Positions 1-7,126 of a stretch of 7,126 bases of DNA are shown here, in pieces. How positions within the stretch are numbered: the stretch's first letter is position 1; each line of letters opens with the position of its first letter. The notes below the pieces were generated by a model. It had not been told where the DNA came from and did not search any database. It saw only the letters and a program-made list of their open reading frames with translations. This stretch comes from a virus. Its lineage: Duplodnaviria > Heunggongvirae > Uroviricota > Caudoviricetes. Location: the IMG/VR virus record IMGVR_UViG_2706794670_000012; one strand, written 5' to 3'. The position numbers and the translations under genes are program-made.

Positions 1-182
1 AGGGACAGCTGATAGAAACAGAAGCCACTGGAGCACCTCAAAAACACCATCATACACTAAATCAGTAAGTTGGCAGCATCACCGGGGGCGCAGACCCTGA
101 TTATGTTATCTGGGCGAAAGAAGTTCAGGGTATTAACCGTGCATGGACTTTCAGACACTGGAAAGGCACTGGAACGGTTGGC

Positions 183-581
183 GTGATGGTGGCGACAAAC
201 GATCCGGAACGCCCGGCCCCGGATGAAAGCGTGATTAACGCAGTCAGGGACCACATCCTTCCTCTGGCACCTGTTGCCGGAAGCGGATTGTATGTATTCG
301 GTGCCACAGAAAAAGTCATCCCGATGACGATTGCATTATCGAAAGACACACCGCAGATCAGGACTGCAATAAAAGCAGAGCTGAATGCACTGATGTTACG
401 GGATGGTGTGCCAGAGGGGCGTATGTATCTGTCCAGAATCAGTGAGGCCATCAGTTTGTCTGCTGGTGAAGTGGCCCACCGGTTAATCGTCCCTTCATCG
501 GATATTGACCTGGGGGAGACCGAGCTTCCGGTGCTCGGCGAGATCACCTGGCAGGCTTATGACCCGGCAAGGAGTAAATAA
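183..581 (+). CDS. Baseplate J-like protein (Mu gp47 / P2 gpJ family), C-terminal portion; probably disrupted, because protein-like sequence continues upstream in frame to 69 and is preceded by an in-frame TAA at 66-68
   Basis: Longest ORF starts at GTG 183 and ends at TAA 579-581, overlapping the next gene start (TAATG). The same frame upstream (69-182) translates as VGSITGGADPDYVIWAKEVQGINRAWTFRHWKGTGTVG, which resembles the conserved mid-protein motif of baseplate J-like proteins as I recall it. No ATG/GTG/TTG lies between 69 and 183. Its position directly upstream of a DUF2313-like gene matches Mu-like baseplate gene order. Family assignment is from memory. Confidence 0.55.
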   Translation: MMVATNDPERPAPDESVINAVRDHILPLAPVAGSGLYVFGATEKVIPMTIALSKDTPQIRTAIKAELNALMLRDGVPEGRMYLSRISEAISLSAGEVAHRLIVPSSDIDLGETELPVLGEITWQAYDPARSK

Positions 582-1171: not shown

Positions 1172-2198
1172 TACGCTGACTGCGGTAAAAGATAAGTTTG
1201 GTCCGGGTAAGAACGGATTTACTGACGGAAATCTTCGCACAGGACGTCTTGCTACCTGGCTGAACAGTGCCATGTGGAATGCCATTCAGGAGGAAATCTG
1301 TGGTGTCATTGAGAAGGCCGGGATAGAACTGAATAAAGAAGAACACGACCAGCTATATAAGGCTATATTATTGCTGGTGGGCGGTGCAATTAACGAAGAG
1401 GCATTGCTGATAAAAAATAACCTTTCGGATGTGGAAGACAGGGATGAGGCTGTTGAAAACCTCGGATTAAAACCCACGGTGGATAAGGCAAAAAATGCCG
1501 TTCAGCGTGATGGCGACACCATGACCGGAGAGCTGAAAATCCGTGGTGTTAATGCGCTGAGGATTTTCAACGAAGCTTTTGGCCTGATTTTTCGTCGTTC
1601 GGAAGAGTGCCTGCACCTTATTCCCACCAGTGAAGGTCAGGGGGAAAATGGCGATATTGGTCCCCTGCGCCCGTTCACCATTAATCTGCGGACGGGTGAA
1701 ATATCCATGTCGCATAAAGTGTCTGTTGGCGGTGGTTCGCAGGTCAATGGTGCGCTGGGTATCGGCGTTCAGAACGCCCTGGGGGGGAATTCAATTGTTC
1801 TTGGTGATAATGACACCGGATTCAAACAGAATGGTGATGGCCTGCTGGATGTTTATGCCAATAGCGTGCATGTGTTGCGTTTTCAGAGTGGCAGTATCCA
1901 GAGTAATAAAGCTGTAAACGTTACAGGACGGGTAACACCGTCAGACTACGGAAACTTTGATGCCCGTTACCAGCAGCGAAATGGTGGCGTGCAGGATGTG
2001 CGGTATGGTTATGAAATGTATTACCCCCCCGGCAGTAACACCGTTTCGTGGACATTTCGCTCACCTTCGGGACACGGGCTGTCAGGGATATCGATATCGG
2101 ATACCGGCCGTAACTCAGCGGATAACGTCAACGGCGTGTATTACCGACCGCTGCAAAAACTGATTAATGGCACCTGGTATAACGTAGCGAGTATTTAA
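1158..2198 (+). CDS. Tail fiber protein (short fiber, 346 aa from ATG 1158) with a C-terminal domain of the P2 gpH / Mu S / P1 S type
   Basis: C-terminal segments (NAVQRDGDTMTGEL; NALGGNSIVLGDNDTGFKQNGDGLLDVYANS; GNFDARY; YRPLQKLINGTWYNVASI) closely parallel the conserved C-terminus of P2 gpH as I recall it. In-frame ATGs lie at 1146, 1152 and 1158; only 1158 has a GAGG (1148-1151) at suitable spacing. The ORF track's longest version starts at 1146. Confidence 0.85.
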   Translation: MHRIDTLTAVKDKFGPGKNGFTDGNLRTGRLATWLNSAMWNAIQEEICGVIEKAGIELNKEEHDQLYKAILLLVGGAINEEALLIKNNLSDVEDRDEAVENLGLKPTVDKAKNAVQRDGDTMTGELKIRGVNALRIFNEAFGLIFRRSEECLHLIPTSEGQGENGDIGPLRPFTINLRTGEISMSHKVSVGGGSQVNGALGIGVQNALGGNSIVLGDNDTGFKQNGDGLLDVYANSVHVLRFQSGSIQSNKAVNVTGRVTPSDYGNFDARYQQRNGGVQDVRYGYEMYYPPGSNTVSWTFRSPSGHGLSGISISDTGRNSADNVNGVYYRPLQKLINGTWYNVASI

Positions 2199-2200
2199 CA

Positions 2201-2746
2201 ATGTTGCATTTAAAAAATATTACGGCAGGTAATCCGAAAACCGCGGAATAATATCAGCTGACAAAACAGTATGATGTCACCTGGCTTTTTTCGGAAGACG
2301 GCAAAAACTGGTATGAAGAACAGAAGAACTTTGCCAGTGACACCATAAAAATGGTTTACACCGGAGACGGGCGCGTGGTGTGGGTCGGTAAGGATGTGAC
2401 AGGCATTGAACCCCGTAACGCCAGTGTTATTGAAGTTCCTGATATTACCGCCAACCGCCGCATTACCGCGCCGGGTTACTGGTTTTACCGCAATGATGAA
2501 TTTGTCTTTGACTACAGACTCAAAGCGGAAGATGAGCGTGATGCCCTTCTGGCTCAGGTCAGTGCCCGGACAGGGGAATGGGAAGAAGACCTGCTGCTGG
2601 GGCTAATCAGCGACGAAGACCGGGAAAAACTGAAAGCGTACCGTATTTACGCGAAATCGCTGCAGGCGATGGATTTCAGCACCATCACTGATAAATCCTC
2701 ATATAACGCCATTGAATGGTCCGTCTCTCCGGAAGGTTCTTCCTGA
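2201..2746 (+). pseudogene. Tail fiber assembly protein (Mu U / e14 Tfa-type chaperone) interrupted by an in-frame TAA at codon 17 (2249-2251); longest intact ORF is 2351-2746 (131 aa)
   Basis: ATG 2201 sits 2 nt after the fiber gene stop. The frame reads [65 protein letters not shown]..., which is colinear with the N-terminus of Mu U-type assembly proteins (MMHLKNI..NPKTKEQYQLTK... as I recall). The TAA falls where homologs have Gln. No ATG/GTG/TTG exists in frame between the stop and ATG 2351, and there is no RBS before 2351. Confidence 0.7.
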
Positions 2747-2769
2747 TTTAATTTATCGCGAGAAAAACT

Positions 2770-4038
2770 ATGTCTGTAGTGATATCAGGTGCGCTGACTG
2801 ATGGCGCAGGCATCCCCATGTCCGGATGCCAGATTATTCTGAAATCCCGTGTAAACACCTCAGAAGTGGTGATGCGTACCAGGGCTGATGTAGTGACCGG
2901 AAATAACGGTGAATATTCGTTTGAGGCACAGGTCGGAAAATATTGCGTGTATCTGAAACGGGACTGGCGCGACGAGTACTGTGTTGGCGACATTGCTGTA
3001 TACGACGACTCAAAGCCCGGCACGCTGAATGACTTTCTGATTGCTCCTGATGAGGGCGACCTGAAACCGGATGTCGTCAAACGCTTTGAGGAAATGGTGG
3101 CGCAGGCGCAGCAGAGCGCCGGGGCCGCAGCCGGAAACGCACAGCAGACGGCGCAGGATGTGGCGGCAGCCGCAGGTTATGCCCGCGCAGCAGAGCAGGC
3201 CAAAAATGACATTGATGCTGCGCTGACCGGCACTCTGAAAACGGCTAACCATCTGTCTGAAATCGCAGCAGCAGGCGAAAAGGCACAACAGAAGTCCCGG
3301 GATAATCTGGGGCTGAAAAGTGCGGCCACGATGGAAGCACAGAGCGACATTTACGACCGGACAAAAGGCCGTCTGGCGATACCCGGCGCATTCGGCTTTG
3401 GGTGTGCTTTTCTGCCTGAAGATGTTATCCGTTTTGACACTAAGAGTGATTTCCTGGCCTGGGTAAGGAATGCGCTGCCAGGTGAATATTCCGTTGCTGG
3501 CCCCTACGACATCATCATACCCGACACACGGTTTGAAGGGGTGCTCAGCATCCGGTGGACTGATGCACGCCCTGAGACAACAGAACCGAGGTACAGAGCC
3601 AAATCCCTTACTTTTTACGGCATTAACGGCCCCATTTATCACACCCGCTACTGCTACTGGCCCATATCCAGACTGACTGGCTGGGTGAAAATAAATATAA
3701 CCACAGAAGATATTATTTACAGAATCGTGGCGAGCTCTGTCTGCAACAGATGGGGAGACCCTGACATTGGCGGGCTGATTATTGCTGCGTACCAGGGAGA
3801 AGCTGACGGTGATAAAGTCATCAGACTTGTCAGGGGGCAGTCATACAGAGGCTCACGACTGGGACCGGTGGGGATTTCAGTGCCCAGTACTCCCACCGGA
3901 ACGTATATAGCATCCCCACAATTTTTCATTACGGGATGTTCAGAGCATTCATTACCGGGGTCATATAGCGCCCTGTCCGGGGTGCCGGATGCTCATGTCT
4001 CTGGCGCAATGCCCGGGCTTTTTATTCGCACATCGTGA
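2770..4038 (+). CDS. Side tail fiber protein with a lambda Stf / StfR-like N-terminal domain, an Ala/Gln-rich central segment and an unrecognised C-terminal (presumed receptor-binding) domain
   Basis: 422-aa ORF. The N-terminus MSVVISGALTDGAGIPMSGCQIILKSRVNTSEVV...VYDDSKPGTLNDFL parallels the N-terminus of lambdoid side tail fibers (MAVKISGVLKDGTGKPVQNCTIQLKA...VYEDSQPGTLNDFL as I recall), followed by an Ala-rich region typical of fiber shafts. The last ~230 aa are not familiar to me. Confidence 0.8.
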   Translation: MSVVISGALTDGAGIPMSGCQIILKSRVNTSEVVMRTRADVVTGNNGEYSFEAQVGKYCVYLKRDWRDEYCVGDIAVYDDSKPGTLNDFLIAPDEGDLKPDVVKRFEEMVAQAQQSAGAAAGNAQQTAQDVAAAAGYARAAEQAKNDIDAALTGTLKTANHLSEIAAAGEKAQQKSRDNLGLKSAATMEAQSDIYDRTKGRLAIPGAFGFGCAFLPEDVIRFDTKSDFLAWVRNALPGEYSVAGPYDIIIPDTRFEGVLSIRWTDARPETTEPRYRAKSLTFYGINGPIYHTRYCYWPISRLTGWVKINITTEDIIYRIVASSVCNRWGDPDIGGLIIAAYQGEADGDKVIRLVRGQSYRGSRLGPVGISVPSTPTGTYIASPQFFITGCSEHSLPGSYSALSGVPDAHVSGAMPGLFIRTS

Positions 4039-4048
4039 GGAATGCACC

Positions 4049-4855
4049 GTGGAAATTAAAAAAATCATTAATCCCCGTTATACCGAAAGTGGCGCAGTAG
4101 ACTGTGACGTTTTTTTTGACGACAGGGACCAGGCAGTCCCCTACACAGCCACCGCTGATGATGTCGCACCGACGGGTCAGCGAATCTGGCAGGAACTGCA
4201 AAGTGGCAAATGGGGTGAGATAGCCCCATTCACTGTGACACCAGAAATGCTGGAAGCGGCCAGAGAGGCCAGACGTCAGGAAATTGAAGCATGGCGCACA
4301 GAACAGGAGGCGAAGCCGTTCACGTTTGAATGGAACGGTCGTATCTGGAATGCTGGCCCCAACTCACTGGGCCGCCTGTCCCCGGTAGTCATGCTGGCAA
4401 AATCTGTCACAGCACAAACNNNNNNNNNNNNNNNNNNNNNNNNNNNNNNNNNNNNNNNNNNNNNNNNNNNNNNNNNNNNNNNNNNNNNNNNNNNNNNNNN
4501 NNNNNNNNNNNNNNNNNNNNNNNNNNNNNNNNNNNNNNNNNNNNNNNNNNNNNNNNNNNNNNNNNNNNNNNNNNNNNNNNNNNNNNNNNNNNNNNNNNNN
4601 NNNNNNNNNNNNNNNNNNNNNNNNNNNNNNNNNNNNNNNNNNNNNNNNNNNNNNNNNNNNNNNNNNNNNNNNNNNNNNGATGCCGATAATCAGCAGGTGA
4701 AACTGTCGATGCCGGAACTGGAAGAACTGGCGGCAGCAATGGTGCAGGCGCAGGTCGATCGCAACGATGAGATTTATCGCCGTCAGCGTGAAATGAAAGA
4801 GGAGCTGAGTGGTCTGGAGGATTTGGGAACAATTAGAGCGTTTGATGTTACGTAA
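4049..4855 (+). CDS. Putative tail fiber assembly/chaperone protein; ORF spans the 259-N assembly gap, so length, continuity and even single-gene status are unverified
   Basis: GAGGA (4037-4041) lies 7 nt upstream of GTG 4049, immediately after the fiber gene stop (TGA 4036-4038). The ORF-track start at ATG 3989 would overlap the fiber gene by 50 nt and has no RBS. Position directly downstream of a fiber gene is the main argument; the sequence (...TPEMLEAAREARRQEIEAWRTEQEAKPFTFEWNGRIWN...) is only loosely chaperone-like. The pre- and post-gap segments are in the same frame only by virtue of the arbitrary gap length. Confidence 0.45.
   Translation: MEIKKIINPRYTESGAVDCDVFFDDRDQAVPYTATADDVAPTGQRIWQELQSGKWGEIAPFTVTPEMLEAAREARRQEIEAWRTEQEAKPFTFEWNGRIWNAGPNSLGRLSPVVMLAKSVTAQXXXXXXXXXXXXXXXXXXXXXXXXXXXXXXXXXXXXXXXXXXXXXXXXXXXXXXXXXXXXXXXXXXXXXXXXXXXXXXXXXXXXXXXDADNQQVKLSMPELEELAAAMVQAQVDRNDEIYRRQREMKEELSGLEDLGTIRAFDVT
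4420..4678. other. Assembly gap (259 N)
   Basis: Uninterrupted run of n characters from 4420 to 4678. Confidence 1.
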
Positions 4856-5053: not shown

Positions 5054-5416
5054 TGGTGGAGCTGGCGGGAGTTGAACCCGCGTCCGAAATTCCTACATCC
5101 TCGGTACTACATGCTTAGTCAGTCTTTACATTCGCTTGCCAGCTGCGGACGGACACGCCACTAACAAACTAGCCTGATTAAGTTTTAACGCTTCAACCCC
5201 AGGCAGGGCTTCCACGCGATCTCTTTTGGGTTTGACCTCTCTTGATCCCCGTCCTAAGAGCGGAGGCTAGGGAGAGAGGGCTCTAAGCAGGTTATTAAGC
5301 TGCTAAAGCGTAGTTTTCGTCGTTTGCGACTATTTTTTGCGGCTTTTTACGAGGCCAACCGCCCCTCGGCATGCACCTTGGGTTTCGCAAATCCCGTCGA
5401 ATCCAGAATCAGCCCC
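5054..5416 (-). ncRNA. ssrA: tmRNA (transfer-messenger RNA, SsrA), 363 nt
   Basis: The reverse complement of 5054-5416 reads GGGGCTGATTCTGGATTCGACGGG...GGGTTCAACTCCCGCCAGCTCCACCA, matching the E. coli tmRNA as I recall it over the full length. The tag-peptide reading frame GCAAACGACGAAAACTACGCTTTAGCAGCTTAA (ANDENYALAA-stop) lies at 5295-5327 on the minus strand. The tRNA-like 3' end finishes in CCA. Confidence 0.97.
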
Positions 5417-5460: not shown

Positions 5461-5630
5461 GCCTCAATGGCGTTATCGTTAAAGATTTAGCACCCATGTA
5501 GCCTGATTTTTATTCGATTAAGCAATGGGATGGCAACATTTGTGTCGGATGTGATAGCCAATAAGATGTTCATTCGCGCCGCCGGAGAGGGAGGCGCGGT
5601 GAGGAACTGGTCAATAATTGGAGTGCAGGT

Positions 5631-6113
5631 TTAACGGTGGGCGTTTTTCATGATACGTGCTTTATCCACCTGCCATTCGCGTTCTTTGATATCTGAACGT
5701 TTATCGTGCTGTTTTTTACCTTTGGCGACGCCGATTTTCACTTTGCACCAGGCATTTTTCCAGTACAGGGAGAGCGCCACTACGGTATAGCCTTCTCGAT
5801 TGACGCGACCGTACAATGAGTCCAGTTCGCGCTGGTTGAGAAGTAACTTGCGGGTACGGGTAGGATCGCACACCACATGCGTGGAGGCCACGGCCATTGG
5901 CGTGATGTTAGCGCCAAACAGAAATGCCTCTCCGTCACGCAGAAGGACGTAGCTGTCGCTGATATTGGCTTTTCCTGCGCGCAGGGATTTAACTTCCCAG
6001 CCTTGCAGGGCAAGTCCCGCTTCGAACTCTTCTTCGATAAAGTATTCGTGACGGGCGCGCTTGTTAAGCGCGATGGTCGCTGAACCAGGTTTATGTGCTT
6101 TTTTCTTCGTCAT
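5631..6113 (-). CDS. smpB: SsrA-binding protein SmpB
   Basis: 160-aa ORF ([81 protein letters not shown]...) matching E. coli SmpB, in the conserved position upstream of ssrA on the same strand. Confidence 0.97.
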
Positions 6114-7001: not shown

Positions 7002-7077
7002 CAGACAGAAAAAAGGTGCTCATTGAGCTAATGCCGATCAGTTAAGGATCAGTTGACCGATCCAGTGGCTGTGTAAG

Positions 7078-7112
7078 AATCCGGAAACGCTCACTTGTTT
7101 CCGGATTTTTTT
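7078..7112 (+). terminator. Rho-independent terminator downstream of ratB
   Basis: ATCCGGAAAC (7079-7088), 8-nt loop, GTTTCCGGAT (7097-7106), forming a perfect 10-bp stem, followed by T7 (7106-7112). Confidence 0.6.
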
Positions 7113-7126
7113 ATGCACATTGGACA

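Follow-up and report, generated by a model that had tools for sequence, protein, structure and literature searches.

A 7,126-nucleotide stretch of viral DNA (IMG/VR record IMGVR_UViG_2706794670_000012), here called the window, carries a tail-fibre assembly gene of the Mu U type (Tfa; 2201-2746, forward strand) that is broken by an ochre codon close to its start. This raises the question of whether the stop is a gene boundary, an error of a draft assembly, a codon that is read through or the mark of a pseudogene, and whether any shortened product matters to its host. The frame that opens at ATG 2201 runs for 16 codons, meets TAA at 2249-2251, with T as the next base, and is then open up to TGA 2744-2746 (translation of 2201-2749), as the first-pass annotation had described. 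ATG 2201 starts 2 bases past the stop codon of the preceding fibre gene (2196-2198; junction TAACAATG, read directly from the sequence), a spacing typical of translational coupling. The next ATG, GTG or TTG in frame past the TAA is, according to the list of open reading frames, ATG 2351, which leaves an open reading frame of 131 amino acids (2351-2746, forward strand). A promoter and terminator scan of 2000-2900 returned no promoter-like site and nothing suggesting a gene boundary at 2249. We argue below that the gene is, very probably, a genuine and vertically inherited Q17 ochre pseudogene in a dead Shigella sonnei prophage, and thus a case of ordinary gene decay.

The window covers the right end of a defective prophage whose tail module is Mu-like and which lies by ssrA in Shigella sonnei. 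Upstream of the Tfa gene, after the remains of a baseplate J gene, stand an intact baseplate gene of the Mu gp48/YmfQ family (581-1171; 196 amino acids; Pfam Phage_Mu_Gp48, E 2.3e-25), whose exact protein is listed in 3758 index blocks, and an open, S-like tail-fibre gene (1146-2198; 350 amino acids from ATG 1146; weak gp37_trimer match), which is annotated as 'phage tail protein' and called at 346 amino acids in L003, L016 and the S. sonnei loci. Downstream come a second, intact fibre gene of the Stf type (2770-4038; 422 amino acids; Pfam phage_tail_N, E 2.4e-63), found as an exact protein on 674 contigs named S. sonnei, and its presumed partner, a DUF4376 gene (3989-4855; Pfam DUF4376), all four on the forward strand. 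The DUF4376 gene is broken by a run of 259 N (4420-4678); its protein has 207 amino acids in identical chromosomes, and in chromosomes that are otherwise identical the place of the N run is taken by 16 bases, GCATATGGCGTGGGGT. Since short-read contigs tend to stop at 4377 or 4419, the run resembles a gap left in scaffolding at the boundary of a repeat within the gene. The prophage adjoins the 3' end of ssrA (tmRNA; 5054-5416, reverse strand), which was identified by ARAGORN (tag peptide ANDENYALAA) and by the RefSeq annotation of matching Escherichia coli loci; past ssrA lie smpB, ratA and yfjF. The window is 99.7-100% identical to the S. sonnei-type chromosomes, and its segment 4679-7126 is 100% identical to every one of them that continues into ssrA. 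Judged by these identities, it comes from S. sonnei or from something indistinguishable from S. sonnei at this locus.

Protein searches used the 181-residue product with codon 17 read as Gln. This protein matches Pfam Caudo_TAP (PF02413) across residues 40-178 with 87.7 bits against a cut-off of 22.1, and the 131-residue remnant was flagged with PF02413 as well. The Mu tail fiber assembly protein U (PDB 5YVQ_B) aligns with residues 1-158 of the query through its own residues 1-164 (E 8.2e-39). The two are colinear from residue 1 over 158 residues and about 75% identical across the first 50 (MxHLKNI..), and the C-terminal third of the window protein diverges from Mu U. When phage genomes were searched by tblastn, the Tfa proteins of Mu, D108, SfMu, P1 and P7 proved about 50% identical to the window protein and those of P2-like phages 43-48% identical, with every match beginning at query residue 1. 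The position of the gene is Mu-like too: it stands immediately 3' of the fibre gene, within a baseplate module of the Mu type (gp44, gp45, gp46, J/gp47, gp48), with gp48 and J upstream, and the same order is found in annotated relatives. The first-pass annotation had named this a Mu U-type assembly gene and had held that the frame past the stop stays colinear with the N termini of assembly proteins. Both statements are borne out by these alignments, and we assign the gene to the Mu U-type, or Caudo_TAP, family of tail-fibre assembly genes, within which Mu U (gp50), P1 U and P2 G are relatives. A Tfa that is 86.7% identical to the window protein is encoded at 42831-43373 of PP818812.1 ('Actinobacillus phage vB_Apl-pPE4'); it is far closer than that of any Escherichia or Shigella phage in the collection, which is odd for the stated host.

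The conservation of codon 17 was assessed in 119 cluster representatives that are 85-98% identical to the window protein. Gln17 is present in all 116 homologues that cover the position, none of which has a stop there, and the alignment with Mu U takes in the motif EQYQLTK, so that Gln17 is present in Mu U too. Exactly 181 amino acids are found in 108 of the 119, and at Met51, the residue encoded by ATG 2351, 26 have V, I or L instead. From these lengths and the variability of Met51 it follows that proteins of this lineage do not start at the downstream Met. An uninterrupted frame for the whole protein is what the window gene lacks, and because of the TAA at codon 17 we file it as a pseudogene of the Caudo_TAP family and not as a functional member.

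At the DNA level, codon 17 is CAA in all three E. coli relatives that were aligned. The nearest of them, FDAARGOS_944, differs from the window over 251 bases only by having C instead of T at 2249, and over the whole gene by 4 of 546 bases. Its orthologue (WP_000902847.1) is an intact protein of 181 amino acids with the same start, from which the window gene is separated by two amino-acid changes and the stop. A second intact orthologue, P0002, comes from S. sonnei records (18 contigs); its 181 amino acids are identical to the window protein with codon 17 taken as Gln. Both intact orthologues share the gene neighbourhood of the window but have CAA at codon 17. The T variant is carried by none of 5426 complete E. 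coli genomes, in which the best 71-base matches are 98.6% identical. The stop is a single C-to-T transition of a conserved Gln codon (CAA to TAA) and not a gene boundary; this reading had already been put forward from the window by itself, together with the expectation, now confirmed, that alignment with homologues would show the stop to replace a conserved Gln.

A change in one base of a draft could also be an error in sequencing or assembly, with the gene really intact, and the first-pass annotation had offered this alternative. The window is clearly a draft, since it has a gap of 259 N where finished genomes have 16 bases, and the exact 'repaired' protein does exist in some S. sonnei records (the 18 contigs of P0002). 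Against an error, the same T recurs in 23 other assemblies. An exact look-up of the 131-residue open reading frame returned 16 contigs, and all ten Logan read-set contigs among the matches listed have TAA; these ten are all from different read sets (run accessions in four series: ERR6005xxx, ERR3633354, SRR13515267 and SRR29091133) and do not differ in the 150 bases upstream. Ten complete or near-complete chromosomes were among the matches listed for the exact 422-residue Stf protein, and every one has TAA in a Tfa gene that is otherwise identical to that of the window; the species of two of them is known from papers (CP060117, S. sonnei UKMCC1015; CP022457, S. sonnei 2015C-3566). Three IMG/VR contigs complete the count. 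The chromosomes were produced in different laboratories and on different platforms, the site is not a homopolymer, and the finished genome of S. sonnei Ss046 has T too, judged by its 131-residue open reading frame (AAZ89357.1, 'putative tail fiber assembly protein p37'; UniRef Q3YYQ5_SHISS). Because the same T stands in 23 other assemblies, the idea of a base-call error is refuted, and we give it a negligible chance.

Exact 39-mers were also sought in GTDB representative genomes, where both the T and the C variant were absent, presumably because Shigella is merged there into E. coli and represented by a genome without the prophage in question; a metagenome scan for the T variant returned none. 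The CAA state occurs in other S. sonnei-labelled records, in other Shigella and in E. coli. As a stable marker of the sampled S. sonnei chromosomes, T at 2249 could serve as a lineage single-nucleotide polymorphism.

A real stop codon might still be decoded, by programmed readthrough or by an ochre suppressor tRNA, to give the full-length protein. The sole point in favour is an open and conserved frame past the stop, and this would be equally expected of a recent mutation. A recoded stop should be conserved across homologues and lie in a weak termination context, and here neither was found: the stop occurs in 0 of 116 homologues and in no complete E. coli genome, and its context, read directly from the sequence, is TAA-T. 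Poole, Brown and Tate reportedly found in 1995 that no other context terminates translation as efficiently in E. coli. The tmRNA is the only tRNA-like gene in the window. We regard decoding of the TAA as almost certainly wrong. Under the preferred reading, that of a pseudogene, translation begun at ATG 2201 should stop after 16 codons, and no full-length chaperone of 181 amino acids would be made.

Another reading is that the gene is trimmed at the N terminus and not dead, and that a short but working chaperone is produced, of 131 amino acids from Met51 or of 162 amino acids from a CTG at codon 20. The 131-residue frame keeps residues 51-178 of the Caudo_TAP match at 40-178, it holds the whole of the C-terminal helical hairpin, which is modelled with confidence, and annotation pipelines do call it as a protein. 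Against this reading stands what would be missing. In Mu Tfa the N-terminal domain, a four-stranded sheet with flanking helices, binds the fibre, with a contribution from helix alpha-1, and the C-terminal helices drive trimerisation (PMC9608196). A product restarted at Met51 would lose about half of this fibre-binding domain. We examined an AlphaFold2 model of a 98%-identical homologue, built from an alignment of 35 close homologues, in which residues 15-24 (with Q17) form a helix and residues 48-54 a strand, in an N-terminal domain of low confidence (pLDDT about 50). A Met51 start would, as modelled at that pLDDT of about 50, cost the protein two strands and two helices and truncate a further strand.

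The claim that ATG 2351 lacks a ribosome-binding site was upheld: the 18 bases 5' of it (GCCAGTGACACCATAAAA, read directly) contain no AGGAGG-like or other Shine-Dalgarno-like run, and Met51 is, as noted above, variable among homologues. The calls of the remnant are themselves inconsistent, as pipelines annotate 162 amino acids (CTG start, codon 20), 131 or 123 (5489-5977 and 5606-5977 in L027-L036; 2019-2507 in L022-L026). The 162-residue call from CTG is also made in S. boydii with CAA, and it reflects the choice of the gene caller and is not evidence of a product. These S. boydii calls (P0140) had been suspected of carrying the same stop; in their contigs codon 17 is CAA and the frame upstream is open, so the short call is a matter of start-codon choice. 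Finally, as shown below, J is split by IS1, so that there would be no particle for the fibre to join. A functional truncated product is unlikely on these grounds, and we consider a working short chaperone an improbable explanation of the locus. The inconsistent calls do have a practical effect: truncated 'tail fiber assembly proteins' inflate protein clusters.

The state of the prophage bears on what the ochre change could have done, and here the left end of the window is informative. Its first 83 bases (1-83, reverse strand) are the terminal bases of an IS1 inserted in the baseplate J gene, and 84-581 (forward strand) is a 3' fragment of that gene, a relative of Mu gp47, from about codon 196 to codon 360. 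The fragment matches Pfam Baseplate_J at profile positions 132-255 of 255 (E 1e-24) and corresponds in alignment to J bases 586-1083 of L016, where the gene is intact. Contig L021 extends the first 83 bases of the window into an open reading frame that matches Pfam Zn_ribbon_InsA over its first 40 residues (E 4.9e-21). In S. sonnei chromosomes J is split by an insert of 767-768 bp that encodes InsA and DDE_Tnp_IS1, and bases 586-595 of J are found on both sides of this insert, a repeat that has the signature of simple transposition with target duplication.

The first-pass annotation had pointed to a second in-frame TAA in the J-like gene. There is indeed a TAA at 66-68 in the frame of 84-581, but the codon lies in the end of IS1 and not in J coding sequence: the translation of 3-581 reads ...HHHTLNQ, a stop, VGSIT and then GGADPDY..., and everything before GGADPDY is IS1. 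The TAA marks the insertion and not a second point nonsense mutation, a case which shows that an apparent second nonsense codon can be merely the end of an insertion element. A further IS1 is present between the tape-measure and DNA-circularisation genes of the prophage in complete S. sonnei chromosomes (L037, 3604-4301; L039, 3609-4306). With J split by IS1, the prophage cannot build a baseplate. The suggestion of a decaying prophage is thus supported by lesions other than the ochre codon, and the element is defective and decaying, disabled independently by the IS1 in J and by the second IS1 upstream.

The relative age of the two lesions can be approached through L021 (GCA_900159285.1), which has the same junction of IS1 and J and only 4 mismatches in 3100 bases against the window, but CAA at codon 17. 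The exact Gln17 protein is also encoded by two other chromosomes, L014 and L015, that have a related remnant at ssrA/smpB. Most likely, IS1 struck J first and the C-to-T change arose later in an already dead element, an order drawn from one 6.5-kb draft contig, L021, and one that a paralogous copy, or gene conversion among several related Shigella prophage remnants, could mimic. On a parsimonious reading, the TAA is fixed in a clade that includes Ss046 and all ten sampled chromosomes.

We hypothesize that the change was most likely neutral, because IS1 had already split J and no baseplate was possible, and that drift or hitch-hiking spread it in the course of Shigella genome decay. The fibre, Stf, DUF4376 and gp48 genes around Tfa are still open, which indicates that the module is only lightly decayed, and some residual selection may still act on it. 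The stop could, in principle, have been selected for, if losing the chaperone of a residual module had been advantageous to S. sonnei and the allele had been fixed for that reason; its presence in all ten sampled S. sonnei chromosomes, next to fibre genes that remain open, would fit. However, in a clone as young as S. sonnei neutral changes become fixed through descent, the chromosomes sampled are few and not balanced across lineages, and the baseplate was probably broken before the stop arose, leaving no obvious phenotype on which selection could act. Selection for the stop accordingly strikes us as highly improbable. Taken more broadly, a non-neutral ochre allele, whether through co-option of a truncated Tfa (from CTG 2258 or ATG 2351) or through selected loss of the chaperone in the ancestor of S. 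sonnei, is very improbable.

Neutral decay as the preferred account has ample precedent in this genus, as the degradation of Shigella genomes by the expansion of insertion sequences (IS1, IS2, IS4, IS600 and IS911) and by nonsense mutations has been described (Hawkey et al. 2020, PMC7373316). The locus resembles that reductive evolution in having an IS1 that borders the window and splits a neighbouring gene, and a point nonsense mutation that is fixed in a clone; it differs in that the gene hit is prophage cargo and not one of the chromosomal metabolic or anti-virulence genes that dominate this literature. The phenomenon is of a kind already known, and the truncated open reading frame has been in databases since the deposit of Ss046. 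Its biological weight is small: the locus adds one prophage-borne pseudogene to the record of a pathogen known for the decay of its genome.

Whether the downstream fibre pair could have replaced the broken chaperone, as had been proposed, was decided by comparison with uninterrupted modules. The order fibre, 181-residue Tfa, Stf and DUF4376 is also found in E. coli C311, FDAARGOS_944 and L016, so that the pair accompanies an intact Tfa in relatives and is no replacement; the four genes form a conserved two-fibre architecture. Mu is organized differently, as the window has neither the invertible G/C segment nor the U' partner of Mu and its Tfa gene is followed by another fibre, of the Stf type, and by a DUF4376 gene; the ochre at codon 17 is a further difference from Mu U. 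The fibre gene of FDAARGOS_944 (L001, 6013-7221) encodes 402 amino acids compared with 346-350 for the window gene at 1146-2198, and the DNA match between the two is broken into two parts by about 170 additional bases.

The surroundings of the module vary among the related loci. In L004 (ERR6005649), a TAA-bearing segment that is 100% identical to window 1856-4419 is joined to a diverged 3' end of DUF4376 with 92.6% identity (2581-3716), and an ipaH-type NEL gene stands where the window has ssrA. The related element in E. coli FDAARGOS_944 also adjoins an ipaHe pseudogene. These two contexts suggest several related prophage remnants, or recombination between them.

At the right end of the window, similarity to E. 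coli chromosomes stops at 7028, just past yfjF/ratB. Identical S. sonnei chromosomes have an IS4-family transposase gene (Nterm_IS4, DDE_Tnp_1) from about the equivalent of window position 7095, and the genes beyond it vary by strain, with raiA-pheA in some and bamE-recN in others. The last bases of the window (7029-7126) are probably an IS4 terminus at a point of rearrangement, to judge by the terminal sequence as well. In L028 and L032 (8152-13269) the DUF4376 gene is followed by another prophage end, with integrase, DUF2303 and YfdP-like genes, and not by ssrA and smpB, an arrangement that suggests either prophages in tandem or a rearranged chromosome at the site.
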